In this document: piece after piece, positions 2,970-42,295 of the stretch
How positions within the stretch are numbered: the first letter of the stretch is position 1
Layout of the letters: every line of letters begins with the position of its first letter
Assembly: GCA_002411015.1 (NCBI GenBank)
Contig: DHPY01000075.1
Coordinates: 28,307 to 92,306 of the forward strand
Source: Armatimonadetes bacterium UBA5352
GTDB lineage: Bacteria > Armatimonadota > Zipacnadia > Zipacnadales > UBA5352
Direction: 5' to 3'
Length of the DNA: 64,000 bases
Position numbers and translations under genes: made by a program
Notes under the pieces: model-generated
What the model was told of the DNA's origin: nothing
Database searches by the model: none
Seen by the model: the letters and a program-made list of their open reading frames with translations, nothing else

Positions 2970-4937
2970 TTGAGTAGAGACGGTCGTGGAGTGAGCGAGT
3001 GTATGATGCGAGGCGGCTGGTCAGGCCCGGAGAGGACGATTGGTGGCATGGGACGCGGCTTTGGGCTGCATCATGGCCACCACTTCCACTTCGATGAGGA
3101 TGACATGCCGGAAACGCCGATGACGCGCGAGCAGATCAGGCGCGTGCTGAAGTACTTCACCCCGTACTGGGCGCAGTGGCTCGTGATCCTGCTGTGCATC
3201 GCGGCGTCCTCAGGACTCGGCGTTCTGCCGCCACTCCTGGTGAAGGGGATCCTCGATGACGCGATCCCAAACGCGAACCCGAGCCTGCTGCACCTTCTCG
3301 TGGGCGGGATCGTGGGCCTGACGATCGTCACCGGCCTGATCGGCGTGCTGCAGAACTGGCTGAGCTCGAAGGTCGGCCAGAACATAATGCACGACCTGCG
3401 GGAGGCGCTGTATCGGCACCTGCAGGCGCAGTCACTCGGCTTCTACACCACCGAGCGCGCCGGTGAGATCGTCTCGCGCGTGAACAACGATGTCGGCGCC
3501 GTTCAGCAGGTGGCATCGGGGACGATCGTGGACATCGCGCGCAACCTGTTCACGCTCATCGCCACCCTGATTGCGATGATCGCTCTGGACCCGTGGCTGA
3601 CGCTGCTGGCGGTCATTGTGGTGCCGACGTTCTACCTTCCGACGCGCATTGTCGGGCGCATCCGACACAGGCTCTCGCGGCAGACGCAGGAGCAGTACGC
3701 CGAGATGGTGGCGTTCATGCAGGAGCGCCTGAACATCGGCGGGATGCTGCTCTCGAAGATCTTCGGCCAGGTGGAGCCGGACGCGGCGCAGTTTGCAGAA
3801 CGCAGTAACCAGGTGGCCGAGTTGAACGTGAAGCAGGCGATGGCCGGGCGTTGGCTGTTCATGGTGCTCTCGGTCTTCAGCGTCGCCGGGCCGGCCCTGA
3901 TCTACCTGCTTGGTGGCCACCAGGCGATCCGCGGCGCGCTCACGATCGGTACTCTCATCGCCTTCGTCGCCTACCTGACGGACCTCTACCGGCCGATGGG
4001 CCAGATCGCGAGCTTCTACGTGAACCTGCAGGGCGCTATGGCGGTCTTCGAGCGCATCTTCGACTACCTCGACCGCGAGCCTGAAGTGCGCGACAGCGAT
4101 GATGCGGTAGAGCTGGTGAAGGTTCACGGCGATATCGCCCTGGAGCACGTCAGCTTCCGCTACCCGCGGCCTCACTACCTCAACCTGCGCAAGAAGGGCG
4201 ATGAGGTCGCGCCTGACGAGAGCCGCCAGGCGCTGACGGATGTATCCTTCGGGATCGGCGCGGGCGAACGCGTTGCGCTGGTCGGCCCCTCGGGCGCCGG
4301 CAAGACCACCGTCACCTACCTGCTACCGCGCTTCTACGATCCAACGGAGGGGCGGATCCTCCTCGACGGCCATGACCTGCGCGAGATCACGCAGGAGTCG
4401 CTGCGCAGGCACTTCGGCGTGGTCACGCAGGACACGTTCCTCTTCCATACGAGCGTGCGCGAGAACCTGTTGTACGCGCGCCCGGAGGCAACCGAGGATG
4501 AGATCTACGCCGCGGCGCAGTCGGCGAACATCCACGAGTTCATCACCGGGCTTCCCGAGGGCTACGAGACGATCGTAGGCGAGCGGGGCTTCCGCCTGTC
4601 CGGCGGCGAGAAGCAGCGGCTGGCGATCGCGCGCGCGCTGCTCAAGGACCCGGACATCCTGATCCTCGACGAGGCCACAAGCCACCTCGACGCGACGAGC
4701 GAGCACCTGATCCAGGAGGCGCTGGAGGTGCTGCTGAAGGGCCGCACGAGCGTGATCATCGCCCACCGGCTCTCGACGATCCTCACCGCCGACAAGATCG
4801 TGGTGCTGGATCGCGGCCGGCTGGTCGAGGTCGGCACGCACGCTGAACTGCTTCGCGGAGGCGGGCTCTACGCGGAGTTGTTCGATCGGCAGTTTGGCGA
4901 GGCGATAGACCAGGCGCGGGCGGCCGCGGGCGGGTAG
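2970..4937 (+). CDS. ABC transporter, fused permease/ATP-binding exporter (MsbA/ABCB-like). Start ambiguous: TTG at 2970, or ATG at 3105 or 3120 preceding TM1
   Basis: Six-TM exporter-type N-terminal half. Walker A GPSGAGKTT. ABC signature LSGGEKQRLAIARAL. Walker B ILILDEATSHLD. H-loop IIAHRL. Confidence 0.9.
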   Translation: MSRDGRGVSECMMRGGWSGPERTIGGMGRGFGLHHGHHFHFDEDDMPETPMTREQIRRVLKYFTPYWAQWLVILLCIAASSGLGVLPPLLVKGILDDAIPNANPSLLHLLVGGIVGLTIVTGLIGVLQNWLSSKVGQNIMHDLREALYRHLQAQSLGFYTTERAGEIVSRVNNDVGAVQQVASGTIVDIARNLFTLIATLIAMIALDPWLTLLAVIVVPTFYLPTRIVGRIRHRLSRQTQEQYAEMVAFMQERLNIGGMLLSKIFGQVEPDAAQFAERSNQVAELNVKQAMAGRWLFMVLSVFSVAGPALIYLLGGHQAIRGALTIGTLIAFVAYLTDLYRPMGQIASFYVNLQGAMAVFERIFDYLDREPEVRDSDDAVELVKVHGDIALEHVSFRYPRPHYLNLRKKGDEVAPDESRQALTDVSFGIGAGERVALVGPSGAGKTTVTYLLPRFYDPTEGRILLDGHDLREITQESLRRHFGVVTQDTFLFHTSVRENLLYARPEATEDEIYAAAQSANIHEFITGLPEGYETIVGERGFRLSGGEKQRLAIARALLKDPDILILDEATSHLDATSEHLIQEALEVLLKGRTSVIIAHRLSTILTADKIVVLDRGRLVEVGTHAELLRGGGLYAELFDRQFGEAIDQARAAAGG

Positions 4938-5018
4938 CGGAACAACGCCGAAGGTTTCGGACTCCCATGCGGGGAATAGGCGCTGTGATGCGCGCATTCT
5001 CCCCCGGGAGCACTCGAG

Positions 5019-34057: not shown

Positions 34058-35533
34058 GTGATGAGGAGCGTCCCCATGGGTATCGCCGAAGTCATGCCAA
34101 CGCCGAAGCAGATGGATCTCTCCACGGAGCAGACGGTGCTGGTGGATCACTCCTGGCGCGTGGCCGATGAGTCGGACGCGATCGACATCGGGACGAAGTT
34201 CGCCGAGGCGTTCTGCATCGGCATGAACGATGCGCCGAACGAGGTCGCGCTTCGGCGTGACAGCAGCCTCGGCGCCGAGGAGTACCGGCTGGAGATCGCG
34301 CCGGGGCGGATCGAGGTCGCGGCGGCCCATCGGCCGGGCTTCATGCACGCGCTGGCGACGATCTCGCAGCTACGCAACGGGCCGCTGCTGCCGGTCGGCA
34401 CCATCAGCGACCGCCCGCGGCTGCCTCTGCGCGGCCTGCAGCTCATGGTCGAGAAGATCTACCAGTTCAACGAGGAGCAGATCCTCTCCCTCATCCGCTC
34501 AGCGGCCCGGCACAAGCTCAACGCGCTGCTGATCGAGTTCGGCGACCGCTTCCCGTTCGAGGCGCCGCACGAGGCCGTCGCGTCGCCGTCGGCGCTGACC
34601 CGGCAGCAACTGCGGCGGATCGTTGACGAGGCGCGCGATCTCGGGCTGGAGATCATCCCGCTGGTGCAGTGCATCGGGCACCTCGAGTGGTTGCTGCAGC
34701 ACGAGGAGTACGCGGATCTGCGCGAGGAGAACGAGGCGCGCGCACAGTTCTGCCCGCTCAACGAGCGCGCAGTGACCGTTTGGGGTGAACTGACTGAGCA
34801 GGTGGTGGAGTCTATCGGCGGTGGCGAGCGCGTGCACGTCGGCGGAGACGAGACGCGGCAGCTTGGCGTCTGCCCGAAGTGCGCAGCGCGGGTCGCGGAA
34901 GCCGGGAAGGGACGGCTCTATGCCGACCACGTCAACCGCGTCTGCGAGTGGCTCGACCAGCGTGGCATGGCGCCGATCATCTGGGATGACATCCTCTGCG
35001 CCCACCCGGAGACGATGGGCTACCTGCATGAGGCCGCGCAGGTCATGTACTGGGACTACTGGACGACGCAGAACCCGAGCCCGCTGCTGGTGGCGCGCGG
35101 GAGCAACGCCGGCGCCGTGGTCTACGACGAGCGCTGGAACTCGGAGTGGGCAGGGGAGCTGCCGGAGATCACCCGCCGGACCCTCGACCGCTTCGCCCGG
35201 CCGGCGAACCTCGAGAGCGATCTGGGCGAGGCCTACCTCGACACATACCGGGAATATCTCGGCGATCAGTTCCCGAGGCATGTCCCGGCGATGCCCTACA
35301 TCGAGTACTATCAGGCGCGCGGGCGTGTCGTCTACGGCGCGCCGACATGCTCAGGCAACCACAGCTTCTGGCACACGCTGCCGGATCTCCAGCGGCATGT
35401 GGAGAACATCAAGACCTTTGCGGATCGGTGCATTGAGACACGCGCCGCCGGCATGATCACGAGCGCGTGGTATAATCGCAGTCCGGAGTTGCTGCACCTT
35501 GGTATCGTGGCGACGGCTGAGTTCAGCTGGTGA
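34058..35533 (+). CDS. GH20-like beta-N-acetylhexosaminidase-family protein (cytoplasmic)
   Basis: RPRLPLRGLQLMVEKIY...ARHKLNALLIEF block (GH20 R-x-x-x-D/NVLHLH-like region) and VHVGGDE (GH20 H-x-G-G-D-E catalytic motif). Confidence 0.5.
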   Translation: MMRSVPMGIAEVMPTPKQMDLSTEQTVLVDHSWRVADESDAIDIGTKFAEAFCIGMNDAPNEVALRRDSSLGAEEYRLEIAPGRIEVAAAHRPGFMHALATISQLRNGPLLPVGTISDRPRLPLRGLQLMVEKIYQFNEEQILSLIRSAARHKLNALLIEFGDRFPFEAPHEAVASPSALTRQQLRRIVDEARDLGLEIIPLVQCIGHLEWLLQHEEYADLREENEARAQFCPLNERAVTVWGELTEQVVESIGGGERVHVGGDETRQLGVCPKCAARVAEAGKGRLYADHVNRVCEWLDQRGMAPIIWDDILCAHPETMGYLHEAAQVMYWDYWTTQNPSPLLVARGSNAGAVVYDERWNSEWAGELPEITRRTLDRFARPANLESDLGEAYLDTYREYLGDQFPRHVPAMPYIEYYQARGRVVYGAPTCSGNHSFWHTLPDLQRHVENIKTFADRCIETRAAGMITSAWYNRSPELLHLGIVATAEFSW

Positions 35534-35545
35534 GCGGTGAGAGTC

Positions 35546-36139
35546 ATGAGCGAACGGGAGCAGCCGAAACTGCCGCTACTGACTGAGCGACTGGAGTTAC
35601 GTGATTTCGGAGAGGCTGACGTCGAGTGGGTGCAGGCATGGGCCTGCGACCCTGCGGTCGTGCGCTTCATGCCATGGGGCCCGAACACGCCGGAGCAGAC
35701 GCGTGAGTTCCTCCAGCGAAAGTTCGCAGAGCGCACGGGGGTGCCTCGCCGCACATGGGACCTCGCCGTGGTCAACCACGGAACCGGCCGCCTGATCGGC
35801 TCCGCCGGCCTGCGCCTCGATGAGACGCTGCAGCAGGCATACATTGGCTACTGCTTCCACCGAGACGCGTGGGGCCACGGCTTCGCGACTGAGGCGGCGC
35901 GCGTGTTGCTGCGCTTCGGCTTCGAGCAGCTTGGACTGCACCGCATCCACGCGACGGTGGACAGCCGCAACGGTGCCTCGATCCGCGTCCTCGACAAGAT
36001 CGGCATGCGCCAGGAGGGGCGACTGCGCGAGCACCTGATGCAGCGGGGCGAGTGGCGGGATTCCTTCCTGTACGCCATCCTGCGGCGCGAATGGGATGCG
36101 ACCGCGGGAGCTGCCAGGCCGAACCCGGACACTGAATGA
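35546..36139 (+). CDS. GNAT-family N-acetyltransferase (RimJ/RimL-like, Acetyltransf_3)
   Basis: ERLELRDFGEADVEWVQAW..., AYIGYCFHRDAWGHGFATEAARVLLRFGFEQLGLHRIHATVDSRNGASIRVLDKIGM. Confidence 0.75.
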   Translation: MSEREQPKLPLLTERLELRDFGEADVEWVQAWACDPAVVRFMPWGPNTPEQTREFLQRKFAERTGVPRRTWDLAVVNHGTGRLIGSAGLRLDETLQQAYIGYCFHRDAWGHGFATEAARVLLRFGFEQLGLHRIHATVDSRNGASIRVLDKIGMRQEGRLREHLMQRGEWRDSFLYAILRREWDATAGAARPNPDTE

Positions 36140-36193
36140 ACGTCTGACGAGATGATGCCGCACAGCCACGCTTCTGTCGCGAAGGGGATTGGA

Positions 36194-37594
36194 ATGAAGA
36201 AGAAGGTCTGGTTACGAGGCATTCTGTTCGTCTTAGTAGCGGGCAGCGCCCTGGCCATGCTGTTCACGTCAGGCGGACCAACATGCGCCCAGGACGCACC
36301 GGCAGTCGAGCCGATCGTGCCGCTGCCGGCGCTTCAGGCTGCAGATCGGCCGAAGAACGTGATCGTGATGATCGCCGACGGCTGCGGCTTCAACCACATG
36401 ACTGCCGCGCGCTACTACGAGCACGGCGATCAGCCGGACCCGCTCTATGAAGCATTCCCGGTAGCGATGGCGGTGCGCACCTGTGCGTCTGGTGGCTCGT
36501 ACGATCCGGCGCAGGTGGCCGCTGACTTCGATTACGTCGCCGGCGGCGCCACCGACTCGGCCGCCGCCGCAACGGCCATGGCGACCGGACAGAAGACCTA
36601 CGCGGGCGCGATCGGCGTTGACGCCGAGAGGCAGCGGGTGGAGAACCTCGTGGAGGCGGCGGAGGCTACCGGCCGAGCGACTGGCGTCGTGACTTCAGTG
36701 CAGTTCGCGCACGCCACGCCGGCGGGCTTCGTGGCGCACTCCGAGGGCCGCAGCAGCTACGCGGAGATCGCCAAGCAGATGATCCACGAGAGTTCAGCGG
36801 ATGTCATCATGGGCGCGGGACACCCGGAGTACGACGACGCCGCCCAGGCGGTTGAGGGCGATCGCGACTACCGGTACGTCGGCGGTGAGGAGAGTTGGGC
36901 CGCCCTTAGAGCAGGCACGGCAGGCGGCGACGCCGATGCGGACGGCGACCCCGACCGGTGGGTGCTGGTGGATGACCTCTCGGAGTTCGAGGCGCTGACA
37001 GCGGGCGATGCCCCTGATCGGGTGCTCGGCGTGCCGCGGGTCCACACCACATTGCAGCAACGCAGGCCCGGCGATGCCGGGGCCGACGCATACGCGGTCC
37101 CGTTCAACGAAGGTGTGCCCGATCTCGCCACGATGGCGCGCGGCGCGCTGAATGTGCTCGGCAACGACCCCGACGGTCTCTTCCTGATGATCGAGGGCGG
37201 TGCGGTGGACTGGGCCGCGCACTCCAACCAGTGCGGGCGGATGATCGAGGAGCAGATCGCCTTCAACCGCGCGGTCGCGGCGGTGGTCGAGTGGATCGAG
37301 GCGAACAGCAACTGGGACGAGACGCTGCTGATCGTGACCGCCGATCATGAGACCGGCTACCTCACGGGCCCCGGGGCAGGGGAGGCATGCACCGCCCCGG
37401 TCTGCCTCGGTCAGGGCGCGATGCCGACGGTGGAGTGGCATAGCGGCAGCCACACGAACTCCCTGGTGCCCTTCTTCGCGCGCGGCGCCGGGGCCGAGGT
37501 CTTCGAGCAGATCCCGCTGGGGACAGATCCGCTGCGTGGGGCCTACATAGACAACACCGACATCGGACGCGTGATCAAGGCGGCTCTGCAGTAG
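36194..37594 (+). CDS. Alkaline phosphatase (PhoA family), exported
   Basis: Signal/TM segment after MKKKVWLRGILFVLVAGSALA. Active-site region ATDSAAAATAMATGQKTY (D-S-A nucleophile Ser). Metal-binding DHETGY / HSGSHTN. Confidence 0.85.
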   Translation: MKKKVWLRGILFVLVAGSALAMLFTSGGPTCAQDAPAVEPIVPLPALQAADRPKNVIVMIADGCGFNHMTAARYYEHGDQPDPLYEAFPVAMAVRTCASGGSYDPAQVAADFDYVAGGATDSAAAATAMATGQKTYAGAIGVDAERQRVENLVEAAEATGRATGVVTSVQFAHATPAGFVAHSEGRSSYAEIAKQMIHESSADVIMGAGHPEYDDAAQAVEGDRDYRYVGGEESWAALRAGTAGGDADADGDPDRWVLVDDLSEFEALTAGDAPDRVLGVPRVHTTLQQRRPGDAGADAYAVPFNEGVPDLATMARGALNVLGNDPDGLFLMIEGGAVDWAAHSNQCGRMIEEQIAFNRAVAAVVEWIEANSNWDETLLIVTADHETGYLTGPGAGEACTAPVCLGQGAMPTVEWHSGSHTNSLVPFFARGAGAEVFEQIPLGTDPLRGAYIDNTDIGRVIKAALQ

Positions 37595-37620: not shown

Positions 37621-37649
37621 GGAAGGGAGCCCTCACCGGGCTCCTTTCC
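37621..37649. terminator. Bidirectional hairpin GGAAGGGAGCCC-tcacc-GGGCTCCTTTCC between convergent alkaline-phosphatase and zinc-ribbon genes
   Basis: 12-bp stem with one mismatch. Located 27 nt after the phoA-like stop and 43 nt after the minus-strand gene stop. Confidence 0.5.
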
Positions 37650-37691: not shown

Positions 37692-38084
37692 CTAGTAGCT
37701 GGCGGCCCGGGCTACGCCGCTAGGCGCGCACTTCTCACACAGCAGCAGCGAGCGGTTCCAGCATCGGTCGCAGATCCATTCGCCGCACTGCGGGCACTGA
37801 TGGAAGTGCTCCCCCACCTGGGTTGACGCCGCCCGCAGCGCTGCATCGTGCTCGAACTGCGCGGCATCATCGGCAGGCTCAGAATCGCCATCCGTCGCCT
37901 CGCGCAGGATCTGGCCCACGCTGTCGATGAAGCCGTTCGCGTCCTCATGCAGCCGGGGCTGACAGTCGCTCTCGTAGGCGCTGTCGCAGCGCTCGCAGTA
38001 GAACCTGAAGCGGAAGCTCTTCTCGTCACTCACGTCCTCGTAACCGCCGAACTCGATCGCGACCAACGTGTCCGCCAAGGTCAT
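37692..38084 (-). CDS. Double-zinc-ribbon-like small protein (130 aa), paralog of 39220-39846; last gene of a three-gene operon
   Basis: Shared N-domain with the paralog: F-[RK]-F-[RK]-FYCERC...HFHQC-[PS]-[QR]-CGEW-[IL]-CD-[RV]-CWN-x-S-x-x-LCE-[KR]-CAP. Cys spacing C-x2-C-x4-C-x2-C-x7-C-x2-C. Confidence 0.5.
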   Translation of the reverse strand: MTLADTLVAIEFGGYEDVSDEKSFRFRFYCERCDSAYESDCQPRLHEDANGFIDSVGQILREATDGDSEPADDAAQFEHDAALRAASTQVGEHFHQCPQCGEWICDRCWNRSLLLCEKCAPSGVARAASY

Positions 38085-38156
38085 CTCTCCTCCATCTCAG
38101 GCCTGCGTAATCGTCATCTCGTGCCCCGCCCGCCAGCGTCCTCGCGTCCTCATGAA

Positions 38157-39236
38157 CTACCCGAACAACTCCTCGGCCCACCGGTCGGGTCTGTCGTGGA
38201 TGACCCGAGCGCGCAAGCCGCTCCGCGCCTCCCGCAGGGAAGGCAGGACCTTCGCAAGCGCCACCGCAGGATCCCTGTCGATCTCCTCGCCTCCGAAGAT
38301 CGGCTCCCGGCGGAAGCCAACCTCCGTCCATGCCCGAACCACCTGCCCTGCATCCTCGAAGACGAAGCTCGCATGATCGGTTTCTGAGAGATTCTCGTAC
38401 AGCTCTCCCTGTCGGGCCGGGCAGAGCGCGACGAGCCGCAGTCCATCATTCAGAGGGTTCAGCACGAGCCGCTCGATCGTGTTCGTCATCCTCTTCCAGT
38501 ATTCCCGGCGTTCGTCACAGATAATCTCCGTTCGCTCAATCTCAGCAACGTGGTCTGGAGTGGCCACAAAGGGCACACACGCGTGGATCATCCCGGCCTG
38601 AGCTTCGTTTCGCCAGGGGAGGCCCGCCGCTTCGAGAGTATCCGCAAAGTGTGAACGCGCGTCCTCGCTCCGGCGCGAGGTCTCGGACGCAAGCTCACGT
38701 GTGACTCGCCTGAGCCCGCCGATCCGCGTCTCGCCGAAGGGCCCGCTGAGCACAAGCTCGTAGCTGCCCGGATCGAACTGCGCGCCGGTCAGCTCCGCGT
38801 ACAGGCGCGCGCAGCAGTCCCCGTCATCGGGCACCCAGCGGAGGGCGTCATCGTAGCGGTAGAGTAGCCCGGGGCACTCGCCTGCGCCCTCGAAGCTGTC
38901 CATCGGCCCCTTGCCCGGAGGCGCCATCAGCGTGGCGAGCGCGTCGGCCCTCGCTCGGCGCAGCGCGATCTCAAGCTCGTCGGTGCGCCGGGCGAAGCGG
39001 CGGAGGGCGATGATGCTGCCATCGAAGGCGTTCACGACGCGGATGACGTAGCCCTCGCGGATTACCTGGCCGATCTCATGCGCCGGCCACGCCAGCAGGG
39101 CACCTGCAGTCCCTGTGGCGCGGAGGCCCTCCAGGCCGACGGTCAGATCGCAGGAGACCGCGCCGGGGAGGGCGGCGGATGGCGGCTCGATCTCGCCCGG
39201 CGCGGCGAAGCGGCACTCCTCAGCCAAGCTTCTCAC
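38157..39236 (-). CDS. Hypothetical protein (about 359 aa; start GTG 39236 or TTG 39227 overlapping upstream stop), sandwiched between two zinc-ribbon paralogs
   Basis: Long protein-like ORF. No ATG until far downstream. The ORF-track N-terminal 90 aa (to 39506) is low-complexity R/S-rich and overlaps the upstream gene, so was trimmed. No recognisable motifs. Confidence 0.4.
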   Translation of the reverse strand: MRSLAEECRFAAPGEIEPPSAALPGAVSCDLTVGLEGLRATGTAGALLAWPAHEIGQVIREGYVIRVVNAFDGSIIALRRFARRTDELEIALRRARADALATLMAPPGKGPMDSFEGAGECPGLLYRYDDALRWVPDDGDCCARLYAELTGAQFDPGSYELVLSGPFGETRIGGLRRVTRELASETSRRSEDARSHFADTLEAAGLPWRNEAQAGMIHACVPFVATPDHVAEIERTEIICDERREYWKRMTNTIERLVLNPLNDGLRLVALCPARQGELYENLSETDHASFVFEDAGQVVRAWTEVGFRREPIFGGEEIDRDPAVALAKVLPSLREARSGLRARVIHDRPDRWAEELFG

Positions 39237-39846
39237 CGCACTCGGAGCAGAAGCGCGCGCCCGCCTGGTTCTCGGAGCCGCACTTCGGGCACTCGAGCGA
39301 TGCACTGAGCGGCTTCCCGCACTCATTGCAGAACTTTCCGCCTGCAGCCTTGGCGCCGCAGTGCGGGCAGAGGACCACCGCGTCATCCTTAACGTTGATC
39401 TGCGATGTGTAGTCGGTGTTATTGATGCGCTCGCGGAGCTGCTCGATGCGCGCCTCCTGCTGCATCGCGGCGATCTCCTCGGTGGTGTCGGGAGCGCAGC
39501 GCTCACAGAGCCCCACGCTCTCGTTCCAGCAGACGTCGCAGAGCCACTCGCCGCAGCGGGAGCACTGGTGGAAGTGCGGCTTCACCTCCGCAACCGCCGT
39601 CTTCAGCGCGTTGTCATGCGCGGGGCCGCCAATGGCGCGCTGTACCTCATAGGCGCTCTGAGCGATGCCGTATCCGCGGCCGACGAGGTCGCTGACGGCG
39701 CGCAGCAGGCCTGCCGCGCGGCCCGCACCGTAGGGATGGAATTCGCTCATGTAGCCGTTGCCGCAACGTTCGCAGTAGAACTTGAACTGGAAGCCGACGT
39801 CGGTGCTCAAGTCCTCGTAGTTATCGGTGAACTGAATCAGTGCCAT
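39220..39846 (-). CDS. Double-zinc-ribbon protein (208 aa): N-domain paralogous to 37692-38084 plus C-terminal tandem CxxC ribbons; first gene of operon
   Basis: MALIQFTDNYEDLSTDVGFQFKFYCERC...HFHQCSRCGEWLCDVCWNESVGLCERCAP, then CPHCGAKAAGGKFCNECGKPL and CPKCGSENQAGARFCSECGEKL (DZR-like). RBS GGAGG about 10 nt upstream of ATG 39846. Confidence 0.55.
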   Translation of the reverse strand: MALIQFTDNYEDLSTDVGFQFKFYCERCGNGYMSEFHPYGAGRAAGLLRAVSDLVGRGYGIAQSAYEVQRAIGGPAHDNALKTAVAEVKPHFHQCSRCGEWLCDVCWNESVGLCERCAPDTTEEIAAMQQEARIEQLRERINNTDYTSQINVKDDAVVLCPHCGAKAAGGKFCNECGKPLSASLECPKCGSENQAGARFCSECGEKLG

Positions 39847-39954
39847 CTTGCGCACCCCTCCTGCAGTCATACCCGCGACGATGGAGGGCTCTTCCGCACG
39901 CGCACGGAATGTCCTGCATCGCCGGTCAATAACGTGCGCAAAGGACGGGTCAGG

Positions 39955-41625
39955 ATGTCCGCGATACAGATGCCTGAGATCTGGGGCGACGGGAAGCTCC
40001 TCACTTTCTCCGGGCTGGACGGTGCGACAAGCTGGTCGAACACACTCGTGGGCGGCGCGACCTCCGACCCGCTGGGGATCGTGCTGCACCTCAGGCCGGA
40101 CGTGCAGGTGATCTTCGGCGGAAAGCTGCAGGAGCAGAGCGGCCTCGTGCTGGGCGACGCGGTAGATGCGTCGGTCACTACCTCTGACGGTTCAGGCGAC
40201 CTCAGGTTCGCCTTCCGCGATTGCTGGACGATCGTTGGCGAGGTCACCGGCAACCTGACTGTCCGCCTGGATGGGCTGTCAGAGGCTGAGGCGGGCTTCG
40301 TCACGCTACTGAGCGAGCAGACCCTTGACGGCACGCGCTGGTGCATCGCGCTTTCGGCGGATTCGGCTGAGGGAGCCGCACAGCGCGCCGCAGACGCGAT
40401 CGGAGCCGACCTGGACGCGCTGATCGAGGCGCGCAGCAGCTTCGCCCGGAGCGTAGAGCCTGCTGGCGACGAGCGCACCTACCGCAAGTGCGCGGAGGTG
40501 CTCAAGCTCAACGCTCGTGCGCCGGAGGGGCGGATCGGGCGCCGCTGGACCACGCCCGACGTCTGGCCGCACCGGCACATGTGGCTGTGGGACTCGGCTT
40601 TCCACGCCATCGGCTGGCGTGAGCTTGACGGGGAGATGGCGCAGGACACGGTCCTCGCGGTGATTGAGCTGCAGGAGGCTGACGGGAAGATCCACCTGTG
40701 CGATGCGCCGCAGCGGCAGAACCAGCGGCACACGCAGCCGCCGGTCCTCGCCTGGAGCGCATGGCGCGTCTTCGAGGCCACGCGCGACGAGCAGTTCCTG
40801 CGCGCGTGCTACGGCCCGCTCGGGCGGTTCATGGACTGGCTCTTCGCGAACCGCGACGTCAACGGCAACGGGCTGCTGGAGTGGCTGAAGGAGTTCCATG
40901 TCGAGCGCTGCCGCTGCGGCGAGTCCGGCTGGGACAACTCCCCCCGCTTCGATCGCGAGATCATTGACGATCATGTGGACATCAACGCGATGGTTGTGCG
41001 GGAGATGCAGTTCCTCGCGCAGATGGCTGAGGTGCTGGGCGAGCGGAGCGACTGGCAGCAGCGCGCCGATGATCTCGCGGGGCTCGTCAACGAGCGCCTG
41101 TGGCACGAGGAGATCGGTCTGTACTTCGACCGCGGCCCCGGTGAGGACCCGTCGGAGTGGATGACGATGAAGTCGGGCGCGTGCCTCCTGCCGATGATCG
41201 CCGGGATCCCGAGCGAGGAGCAGGCGCGGCGGATGGTCGAGCAGCATCTCACGAACGAGAGCGAGTTCTGGGGCGCGACGCCGGTGCCGACGGTGGCCTT
41301 CGACGAGCCGCAGTATGATGACGACATGTGGCGCGGGCCAACATGGATGAACATCAACTTCCTGATCTGGGAGGGCCTCCGACGCTACGGCTTCGACGAC
41401 GTGGCGACCGAGCTGCGGAAGCGCTCGATGGAGGCGATCGAGCACTGGTACACGGGTGTGGGCGCGCCGCTGGGCGGGATCTTCGAGTACTACGACCCCG
41501 CGCGTGAGACGCACCCGTTCTGGCTGCACCGCAAGGGCGGCCAGTGCGGCGTAGGCGGAATCTCGGTCATCCGCGACTACGGCTGGACCGCCGCGACGTA
41601 TATCGGGTGGGCGAAGGGAAAGTAG
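39955..41625 (+). CDS. (alpha/alpha)6-barrel glycoside hydrolase, GH63-like (mannosyl-oligosaccharide glucosidase / YgjK / MGH family)
   Basis: WLWDSAFHAIG motif, LLEWLKE..., FWGATPVPTVAFDEPQYDDDMWRGPTWMNINFLI, typical of the GH63/GH37 six-hairpin fold. The ORF-track start 39115 overlaps opposite-strand genes, so ATG 39955 was chosen. Confidence 0.55.
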   Translation: MSAIQMPEIWGDGKLLTFSGLDGATSWSNTLVGGATSDPLGIVLHLRPDVQVIFGGKLQEQSGLVLGDAVDASVTTSDGSGDLRFAFRDCWTIVGEVTGNLTVRLDGLSEAEAGFVTLLSEQTLDGTRWCIALSADSAEGAAQRAADAIGADLDALIEARSSFARSVEPAGDERTYRKCAEVLKLNARAPEGRIGRRWTTPDVWPHRHMWLWDSAFHAIGWRELDGEMAQDTVLAVIELQEADGKIHLCDAPQRQNQRHTQPPVLAWSAWRVFEATRDEQFLRACYGPLGRFMDWLFANRDVNGNGLLEWLKEFHVERCRCGESGWDNSPRFDREIIDDHVDINAMVVREMQFLAQMAEVLGERSDWQQRADDLAGLVNERLWHEEIGLYFDRGPGEDPSEWMTMKSGACLLPMIAGIPSEEQARRMVEQHLTNESEFWGATPVPTVAFDEPQYDDDMWRGPTWMNINFLIWEGLRRYGFDDVATELRKRSMEAIEHWYTGVGAPLGGIFEYYDPARETHPFWLHRKGGQCGVGGISVIRDYGWTAATYIGWAKGK

Positions 41626-41638
41626 CGGCAGGAGGACT

Positions 41639-41700
41639 TGTTGCGGAAAAGCACAATGTTGCGCATATGAGCAACATGGGGTATAGTGGCAACATGAGAC
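41639..41700. repeat. Palindromic repeat cluster (ATGTTGC-n8-GCAACAT; additional GCAACAT copy) at 5' flank of frameshifted gene
   Basis: caATGTTGCgcatatgaGCAACATggggtatagtgGCAACATgag read directly. Related to the cluster at 42293-42355. Confidence 0.45.
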
Positions 41701-42295
41701 ACAAGCAGGCGCTCTCTCAGGTGCGACGGGTGCTGGAAGAGGTCCTGCGGACCTCAGTCAGGGAGATCTCGCCAGCACGAATCGACGGGTGTGAACCGGA
41801 CGCTCTGTTCCAGGCGTCGGGCCGCGAGTTTGTGGTCGAATACGAAGTGGACGCCTCGGCGGATCTGGTGGGTAGAGCCGCCTCGCTACTGCGGCATGTT
41901 CGGCGTGAGCGGCCTGACGCGGTACCCCTGGTCGTCGTTCCCTTTATGGGTGAGGTTGGTAAACGACTGTGCGAGGAAGCGGGCATCTCCTGGCTCGATC
42001 TGTCTGGCAACGCCAGCATTCGCGCCGCTGGTCTAGAAGTACGGATCGAGGGGTCGCCTAACGCCTACGCCCGCCCGGGGCGTCCCAAGAGCCTCTTCTC
42101 ACAGAGGCCCTGCGCCCGCTACTGGACGATCCGGATGCGTGCGAAGCGATGCGATGGCTTGAGGAGGATTACGCCACCATCGATAGCATAGGGCCGATGC
42201 GTCTGGCGGACTTTCAATCCAGAGCGGCCGATGACGAAGCACAGGGCGAGGCTTGGGCTCTCGTCCGCGAGCTTCTGCGTCGCCTCGAGATCTGA
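41667..42295 (+). pseudogene. Hypothetical protein gene (about 209 aa) with a -1 frameshift in a C/G homopolymer region (about 42062-42100), in a lower-GC islet
   Basis: Frame-2 ORF MSNMGYSGNMRHKQ...GSPNAYARPG... ends at 42191. Protein-like text continues in frame 1 (...PLLTEALRPLLDDPDACEAMRWLEEDYATIDSIGPMRLADFQSRAADDEAQGEAWALVRELLRRLEI, stop 42293-42295). Shift point near ccgcccgggg. Confidence 0.4.

Follow-up and report, generated by a model that had tools for sequence, protein, structure and literature searches.

Locus organization

The window, i.e. the whole analysed stretch of 64,000 nucleotides, harbors three co-oriented minus-strand genes, here referred to as A, B and C, that were delineated by an ORF and sequence check. 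The genes and the elements between and around them are as follows:

39847..39954, no strand assigned: divergent intergenic region of 108 nt between A and an MGH1/GH63-like glycosidase gene (from sequence)
39220..39846, minus strand: gene A, a 208-aa zinc protein with a putative RING-like head, a probably helical linker and a double zinc-ribbon tail
39220..39236, minus strand: A/B overlap of 17 nt, in which the end of A covers the GTG start of B (from sequence)
38157..39236, minus strand: gene B, 359 aa, with two predicted PH domains and a conserved C-terminal domain
38085..38156, minus strand: B–C spacer of 72 nt, with GGAGGAG located 5 nt before the ATG of C (from sequence and terminator scan)
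37692..38084, minus strand: gene C, a 130-aa paralogue of the head of A only
37621..37649 (extended; core 37626-37644), minus strand: terminator-like hairpin between C and a convergent alkaline phosphatase gene

Products of 208, 359 and 130 aa are also called in public assemblies containing the identical B protein, and the GC3 values of 0.85, 0.81 and 0.85 for A, B and C, respectively, indicate that all three genes are coding. The GC content of the locus is host-like, as the preliminary description had stated. The same description had assigned to the middle ORF a product of about 359 aa with an artefactual N-terminus in the ORF track, which is borne out: B starts at the GTG at 39236, 17 nt inside A, and the starts of its homologues (MRSL, VRGL or MRGL) fall at the aligned position, hence the 449-aa ORF-track version is an artefact. 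That this ORF encodes a real protein is further supported by its conservation and by a well folded model. At the A/B junction of homologous loci, overlaps of 17, 17, 8, 4 or 19 nt or a gap of 1 nt are found, and among the A-then-B arrangements that were read, the two genes overlap or abut in eight of nine loci. Translation of B is thus probably coupled to that of A via the stop/start overlap.

The terminator scan revealed no hairpin inside the 72-nt spacer between B and C. The divergent 108-nt region upstream of A is presumed to contain its promoter; a sigma-70 consensus was not found in it. Downstream of C, the preliminary description had placed a clean bidirectional hairpin terminator. A hairpin does exist there and is plausible as a terminator, but it lies within chance expectation (one found in the scan versus 1.0 expected; fold z-score of −1.33) and its U-rich tail is imperfect. 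No tRNA or Rfam elements were detected within the window, and no catalytic domain, signal peptide or membrane segment is recognisable in A, B or C.

Gene A and the head domain shared with gene C

A and C are paralogous and share an N-terminal domain, as had been proposed; a formal alignment by BLASTP gives 41 % identity over 120 aa (E=2e-30). The common head motif is confirmed as F-x-F-x-F-x-C-x2-C ... H-x-C-x2-C-G-x-W-x-C-x2-C-W-N-x5-C-x2-C-A-P. While the initial count of eight Cys was correct, the spacing quoted for them, C-x2-C-x4-C-x2-C-x7-C-x2-C, holds only six; the other two belong to the N-terminal CERC approximately 65 residues upstream. All eight are invariant in 17 A/C sequences as well as in 34 A-type sequences from several phyla. 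Invariant residues of A further include F19, F21, F23, W101 and W107-N108. Gene A can be subdivided into three parts:

39490..39846, minus strand: A head, residues 1-119; beta-hairpin with the first CxxC (C25, C28), then an insert of about 65 aa, also conserved, and finally HFHQC-x2-C-x4-C-x2-C-x7-C-x2-C-AP
39379..39489, minus strand: A linker, residues 120-156 (EEIAAMQQEARIEQLRERI...); conserved E/Q/A/R-rich segment in the A-type alignment
39223..39378, minus strand: A tail, residues 157-208; double zinc ribbon (CPHCG..CNECG, CPKCG..CSECG)

The linker is probably helical and may form a coiled coil. Both proteins had initially been referred to as double-zinc-ribbon proteins, a term that fits the tail of A but not the head common to A and C. 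In the tail, a genuine DZR, residues 160-204 match the Pfam family DZR (PF12773) with 37.8 bits at a cutoff of 27.3, Zn_ribbon_3 and Zn_Ribbon_1 score 39.8 and 40.0 bits, respectively, and 32 of the 34 A-type proteins match DZR. Residues 157-208 resemble the PF12773 tails of COG4260/YdjI-type proteins. Unlike these, A possesses no SPFH domain, and its DZR is confined to the tail and absent from C and the shared head. Some A-type proteins carry the JGI name ‘membrane protease subunit (stomatin/prohibitin family)’, which presumably stems from a match of the tail to COG4260. No DZR or Zn_ribbon match to C was obtained at E≤1, and one of two C constructs from which the insert had been deleted matched DZR at E=0.36. 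The shared head is, at the sequence level, no double zinc ribbon.

Instead, its six-Cys segment resembles Prok-RING_2 (PF14445, prokaryotic RING finger family 2; Burroughs, Iyer and Aravind 2011), matching it in all 17 head sequences at E≤0.01, as do 23 of the 34 full-length A-type proteins. The result is marginal: at a gathering threshold of 22.4 bits, C scores 25.4, the isolated head of A 23.0 and full-length A 21.9, i. e. just below. Native heads align only to profile positions 16/22-48 of 56; once the insert is deleted, the alignment covers positions 7-48, while the score (25.8-25.9 bits) does not change. The next-best matches are FYVE, PHD and B-box, all of them cross-brace binuclear fingers. 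Together with the first CxxC, the six-Cys segment offers eight ligands, enough for a binuclear finger, and the six-Cys part of the head may be regarded, on a marginal profile match, as a RING-like binuclear zinc finger. In its Pfam description, the Prok-RING_2 family is fused to TROVE/TerD-type domains. A and C differ from it in that a conserved insert places their first CxxC about 65 residues upstream of the six-Cys segment and in that neither has a TROVE/TerD-type fusion or a ubiquitin-system context. More than 595 homologues of A were found, and A is 50-65 % identical across phyla; by these sequence comparisons, it belongs to an ancient, very conserved family.

C has an acidic insert and lacks both the linker and the DZR tail. 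It shares 43.5 % identity with the A heads of Armatimonadota versus 38.3 % with those of other phyla, and C proteins are 59 % identical to each other versus 73 % among A proteins. C-type genes were seen only in loci of Armatimonadota/WS1 and not beside distant relatives of B. Judged by these comparisons, C derives from a local duplication of the head of A and represents an Armatimonadota-specific, faster-evolving, tail-less copy of it.

Gene B: a predicted tandem-PH protein

No Pfam or NCBIfam family covers B, in line with the earlier statement that it contains no recognisable motif. It is not wholly unassignable, however, as two PH-like domains and a C-terminal domain can be distinguished:

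38925..39209, minus strand: PH-like domain 1, residues 10-104; seven strands and a C-terminal helix
38628..38900, minus strand: PH-like domain 2, residues 113-203 (AF2 model, Foldseek)
38160..38621, minus strand: C-terminal alpha/beta domain, residues 206-359; more strongly conserved across the superfamily than the rest of B

The AF2 model of B (pLDDT 91.9) contains a seven-stranded beta-sandwich with a C-terminal helix cap twice. Foldseek searches with the full-length model retrieved Spt16-M, Pob3-M, Rtt106, centaurin-alpha1 and BBS5 (E of 1e-5 to 1e-3). The TM-scores are low (0.17-0.26); these matches reflect two PH domains in a row and not a common arrangement. According to the model, B combines tandem PH domains with a C-terminal domain that is conserved and of unassigned fold. 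With known tandem-PH proteins (Spt16-M, Pob3/SSRP1-M, Rtt106, centaurin-alpha1, BBS5) it shares two consecutive PH-like domains (residues 10-203), from which it differs in the lack of any sequence relationship, in domain orientation, in the extra C-terminal domain, and in being bacterial and paired with a zinc-finger gene. The closest resemblance to a bacterial family is to bPH_10 (PF23494, threshold 27 bits), which the homologue P0027 nearly reaches with 26.3 bits; B of the window itself gives no match. BLASTP detected no similarity between the two PH domains, whose duplication is suggested only by a common L/G-x-RR-x-x-x-E-L motif and by HMM cross-hits. Profile searches of PDB sequences with the B and head alignments returned only noise.

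Since PH matches dominate the Foldseek results for full-length B, the C-terminal domain was searched separately. Modelled alone, it has no convincing fold neighbour in Foldseek; weak matches were to binding or immunity-type alpha+beta domains and SH2 domains, with no enzymes among them. Its signature reads E-x(5-7)-[DG][HR]A[TS][YF]xF ... FRRxP[IV] ... [GA]RxxH-x5-W. Its invariant E/H/R/R/H/W residues would be just as compatible with an enzyme that has gone unrecognised or with a pocket for a small ligand. Beyond 31 close homologues, a wider superfamily of 173 representatives at 50 % identity was assembled, and one B motif alone gave more than 579 metagenomic matches. No natural fusion of A and B was found: the distant B relatives whose N-termini are offset turned out to be PH1-profile matches on PH2.

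The A–B pair as the core unit

The complete triad is present in the window, in three distinct context loci and in nine of twelve GTDB-species loci (Armatimonadota/WS1), in one of which C is displaced by an inverted glycosidase gene between B and C (L011). Among the other three, the frame of B is broken in one (L016), one is cut (L018), and one has no C in the 2.1 kb downstream of its B gene, the most divergent of all (L017). Since the flanking genes are syntenic within Armatimonadota as well, local conservation of the triad alone is weak evidence.

Distant B relatives (~25 % identity, in loci of 28-67 % GC) have a same-strand A-type gene within 4 kb wherever their flanks allow the test; in L020-L023 and L107, this gene is adjacent. 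For a metagenome scan, an alignment of a B subfamily, with members 35-42 % identical to their own query, was used, as a broad alignment of 60 sequences was too diverse. A same-strand A-type gene was found within 4 kb in 65 of 80 loci (28-65 % GC), which represent 42 of 56 clusters formed at 90 % identity; in the 15 remaining loci, the flanks are truncated without exception. Outside Armatimonadota, an all-zinc-ribbon protein of ~110 aa is found instead of C and occurs in 65 of the 80 distant loci. Neither NCBIfam searches nor cluster names revealed anything for this protein and for the distant B relatives. Conversely, four of five contexts chosen through A have an A-type gene with no B within 5-6 kb; A-type genes thus often lack a nearby B, and A can function without one next to it.

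As far as gene neighbourhoods show, the A–B pair is the core unit, co-inherited on the same strand across phyla, and the triad is secondary. The view of the locus as a dedicated module instead of a chance neighbourhood is thereby upheld. Its description as a paralogue–X–paralogue unit applies to the window and to Armatimonadota/WS1, but this arrangement is a lineage-specific elaboration. Literature searches found no published description of an A–B module.

Possible functions of the module

We tentatively favour, at somewhat below an even chance, the reading that the locus encodes a self-contained cytoplasmic module whose products form a non-enzymatic zinc-finger/PH adaptor complex. A and B would be produced in fixed proportion and act as one complex, with B as the adaptor that holds the zinc head of A. 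Peptides or small protein modules are the typical partners docked by PH domains; the two in B could serve as docking sites, to which the conserved C-terminal domain would add a further one. The linker and DZR tail of A may then link the complex to another partner. For C, two positions are conceivable, either a second site for a head on B or the site used by A, for which the two would then compete; in both cases C would tune the complex. In other lineages, the extra slot could be filled by the separate ~110-aa all-zinc-ribbon protein. The output would most likely be regulatory or scaffolding, not enzymatic. Eukaryotic adaptors that combine PH domains and zinc fingers are exemplified by Vps36, with its GLUE domain and NZF fingers, and by the PH domain of TFIIH p62. 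The likeness to these is one of analogy and not of demonstrated homology, and in the present case the parts reside on separate polypeptides.

A more far-reaching version, which we consider possible but rather unlikely, takes the A–B pair as a widespread undescribed module in which a RING-like protein and a tandem-PH protein with a new domain (DHATY / FRRxPI / GRxIH) form a signalling or quality-control complex. This would recruit lineage-specific zinc-finger subunits (C in Armatimonadota, the all-zinc-ribbon protein elsewhere), and in the C-terminal domain of B one would then have either a novel fold or a novel domain for ligand binding or catalysis.

An envelope- or membrane-linked signalling role, in which the GRAM/PH-like domains of B bind membrane lipid and the zinc-ribbon proteins make up a sensor's cytoplasmic end that works with envelope proteins, appears improbable. 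About 12 of the 80 distant loci carry FecR-domain, DUF4352 and CsgG/FlgO/LpoB-like genes in the space separating B from the zinc-ribbon/A pair. Some A or A–B loci are flanked by genes for two-component systems, and a Gly-rich hydrophobic stretch, LLRAAGxLFGG, is conserved in the insert of A. However, such envelope genes occur at a minority of loci and at none in Armatimonadota, A, B and C have neither a membrane segment nor a signal peptide, and a PH fold alone is no predictor of lipid binding. The signalling or envelope function proposed earlier thus survives as a weak possibility.

Slightly more doubtful still is that B acts as an unrecognised enzyme or small-ligand receptor through its C-terminal domain, with A and C as zinc-dependent or redox-sensitive regulators or substrates. 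This domain is the best conserved part, with E, H/R-A-T-Y, FRRxP, GRxxH and W invariant or near-invariant, and the partners are Cys-rich (16 Cys in A, nine in C). Yet no catalytic family was matched in Pfam, NCBIfam or PDB, and the above-mentioned weak fold matches point to binding/immunity-type and SH2 domains.

Handling of nucleic acids or basic proteins, with zinc ribbons that bind DNA/RNA and tandem PH domains that act like histone chaperones, is very unlikely. Zinc ribbons are common in nucleic-acid-binding proteins and B is best matched in Foldseek by the tandem-PH modules of Spt16, Pob3/SSRP1 and Rtt106, but the low TM-scores and differing domain arrangement weigh against this, as does the lack of a consistent association with DNA/RNA metabolism genes.

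The Prok-RING_2 match, which in every head sequence reaches or approaches the gathering threshold, could also be taken to indicate a RING-type E3-like component of a bacterial ubiquitin-like conjugation pathway, and one Prok-JAB gene is located ~5 kb from a solo A-type gene (L005). We give this little credence: E1, E2, Ubl or JAB genes adjoin the module in none of the approximately 100 loci read, and the Pfam match covers only part of the profile. One paper describes prokaryotic RING fingers as functionally diverse and not all ubiquitin-related (PMC4029887, citing Burroughs et al. 2011). A ubiquitin-like system, with no E1, E2 or Ubl genes beside the module, was hence rejected.

Finally, the conflict role that had been suggested is not substantiated, and an anti-phage or conflict system is just as implausible. 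In its favour, the module is small, multi-gene and patchily distributed, and VapBC or Cas4-like genes occur near two loci. Against it, there is no true match in PADLOC-DB 2.0 (only a 10-bit LmuB match of A at E=0.07, and nothing for B and C), effector-type domains are lacking, and searches of 50,697 phage and 72,556 plasmid records revealed no copies. The GC content is host-like, synteny with glycosidase genes is stable across Armatimonadota, and the 55-65 % identity of A across phyla is unlike that of fast-evolving defence genes.

Significance

The superfamily of B is new to Pfam/NCBIfam and has no relative of solved structure, while A, one of the better conserved small zinc proteins of several phyla, is annotated only as ‘zinc ribbon domain-containing protein’. 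Should A and B prove to be no more than a structural adaptor pair, several hundred to several thousand genes would be better annotated, but no new principle would emerge. The coupling of A and B also offers a concrete hypothesis for a role of prokaryotic RING-like fingers outside ubiquitin pathways. Lineages that have or lack C, and those that have or lack the all-ribbon protein, provide a natural experiment, and the genetic coupling of A and B makes two anonymous families one testable system.

Gene organization

The three neighbouring genes and the putative terminator are arranged as follows.

39846..39220, minus strand: gene A, zinc protein of 208 aa
39236..38157, minus strand: gene B, tandem-PH protein of 359 aa, GTG start
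38084..37692, minus strand: gene C, zinc protein of 130 aa
37626-37644 (extended form 37621-37649): hairpin between C and a convergent alkaline phosphatase gene

B starts 17 nt within A, and assemblies with an identical B protein have exactly the 208/359/130-aa calls, in agreement with the preliminary description of a product of about 359 aa whose start overlaps A. A 72-nt spacer with GGAGGAG ahead of C separates B from C. GC3 values of 0.85 (A), 0.81 (B) and 0.85 (C) indicate that all three genes are coding, and the GC content of the region is host-like, agreeing with that of the window. The hairpin 3' of C, initially regarded as a clean bidirectional terminator, is present and plausible in this role, but not statistically distinctive. 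Armatimonadota MAGs make up the close relatives; some of them bear the name ‘candidate division WS1’ or that of the Armatimonadota class Candidatus Zipacnadia.

The flanks (34058-37594 and 39955-41625) harbor genes for a GH20 hexosaminidase-like protein, a GNAT acetyltransferase, the alkaline phosphatase and an MGH1/GH63-like glycosidase, the last divergent from A. Their order is for the most part kept in other Armatimonadota MAGs, only some of which have the alkaline phosphatase. A 215-aa ORF (41544-42191, plus strand), whose end looks frame-disrupted, lies between the glycosidase gene and a 972-aa minus-strand gene.

A RING-like head shared by A and C

A and C are colinear paralogs over 120 aligned residues (41% identity, E=2e-30), corresponding to an N-terminal head. 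All eight cysteines noticed at the outset (C25, C28, C95, C98, C103, C106, C114 and C117) are invariant both among 17 head sequences and among 34 A-type proteins from several phyla, as are F21, F23, W101, N108 and the A-P following the last cysteine. F19, H93 and W107 are invariant among the 17 heads only, while conservation of the ‘HFH’ motif is limited to its second histidine. Pfam Prok-RING_2 (threshold 22.4 bits) is matched by C with 25.4 bits and by the isolated head of A with 23.0 bits (full-length A, 21.9), as well as by 17/17 heads and 23/34 A-type proteins. The alignment is confined to the six-cysteine part of the head; removal of a ~65-residue insert extends it to the first CxxC (profile positions 7-48) but leaves the score no higher. 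The next-best families, FYVE, PHD and B-box, are each cross-brace binuclear fingers. These profile matches point to a split RING-like binuclear finger as the most apt description of the head. Hence, of the proposed double-zinc-ribbon architecture, only the C-terminal tail of A stands, which is a clear DZR by Pfam profile.

C lacks the conserved Gly-rich insert, linker and tail of A. It is more similar to A heads from Armatimonadota (43.5% identity) than to those from other phyla (38.3%), and evolves faster than A (C-C identity 59% versus A-A 73%). We infer that C arose by lineage-specific duplication followed by divergence.

Protein B and its superfamily

Protein B, previously deemed unassignable, contains two PH-like units. 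In its confident AF2 model (pLDDT 91.9, pTM 0.89), residues 10-104 and 113-203 each form a beta-sandwich-plus-helix unit, and an alpha/beta domain follows at residues 209-359. The top Foldseek matches are the tandem-PH proteins Spt16-M, Pob3-M, Rtt106, centaurin-alpha1, BBS5 and Dok7; since TM-scores are low, the match concerns the tandem arrangement rather than the geometry. The 31 close homologues (350-369 aa, 48-100% identity) contain no Pfam domain except for one near-threshold bPH_10 match. An exhaustive HMM search delineated a superfamily of 173 representatives (340-540 aa), none of which matched a Pfam or NCBIfam family. Their best conserved part is the C-terminal domain with the signature E..[DG][HR]A[TS][YF]xF, FRRxP[IV] and [GA]RxxH-x5-W, which could alternatively be an unrecognised enzyme or ligand receptor; catalytic signals are absent from A, B and C.

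Genetic coupling of A and B

The complete triad recurs in 3/3 distinct context loci and in 9/12 loci of Armatimonadota/WS1 GTDB species. The latter count includes the WS1 MAG locus L011, where an inverted MGH1/GH63-like glycosidase gene (L011:2152-3837) separates B from C, and C can therefore be transcribed independently. The reading frame of B is broken in L016, and L018 is a cut locus. L017 (1693-3791), the most divergent Armatimonadota-type locus (B 46% identical), retains A and B but lacks a C-type gene over the following 2.1 kb. Because the flanks are syntenic too, conservation of the triad within Armatimonadota/WS1 is by itself weak evidence.

Beyond this phylum, the genes of distantly related B proteins (E 1e-18 to 1e-13 versus the profile) are all immediately preceded by one of A-type. 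The two genes lie 1 or 61 nt apart or overlap by 4 nt; in the distant locus L107, the overlap is 19 nt. A metagenome scan for the B subfamily defined by NFRREPIY gave 80 loci with 28-65% GC (56 clusters at 90% identity). In 65 of them, an A-type gene of the same orientation lies no more than 4 kb from B (upstream in 15, downstream in 50), and flanks are truncated in all 15 others. Conversely, B was missing within 5-6 kb in four of five contexts chosen through A. Across phyla, A is much more conserved (50-65% identity) than B (~25%). A and B are genetically coupled.

A triple DZR-like protein of ~110 aa, composed solely of CxxC zinc ribbons and with 50-74% identity between loci, is encoded in 65/80 scan loci, usually directly upstream of the A-type gene (e.g. 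L067:5348-5701). It may be equivalent in role to C in Armatimonadota.

The component folds of the A-B module are already known. Pfam, NCBIfam, PDB and the literature searched contain no entry for the A-B association, for the B superfamily or for its C-terminal domain. Several A-type proteins (P0125, P0135, P0137, P0140, P0150) carry the JGI name ‘membrane protease subunit (stomatin/prohibitin family)’. They lack an SPFH domain and the name looks like an annotation artefact, presumably from the zinc-ribbon tail matching COG4260.

Possible functions

An envelope-linked sensor is one conceivable role, in line with GRAM-like matches of B. In ~12 of the 80 scan loci, genes for FecR-domain, DUF4352 and CsgG/FlgO/LpoB-like proteins, all envelope-type, separate B from the zinc-ribbon/A pair (L024:5998-7182; L034:1905-3167 and 4341-4955; L061:5235-6413; L084:5271-6170), which may hint at an envelope link; secretion signals are absent from A, B and C. 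A nucleic-acid or chaperone-like role is a further candidate. The zinc fingers might also serve as a ubiquitin-like E3, but E1, E2 and Ubl genes were not found nearby. A solo A-type gene on a Pyrinomonadaceae contig has a Prok-JAB gene (L005:11772-12215) at a distance of ~5 kb, a single case and probably a coincidence. A defence role found no support, and defence and mobile-element signals are absent for A, B and C.

Tentatively, and with somewhat less than even confidence, we regard the module as a non-enzymatic complex. B would dock the zinc head or heads, the linker and DZR tail of A could reach toward another partner, and C may act as a second subunit of the complex or as a competitor.
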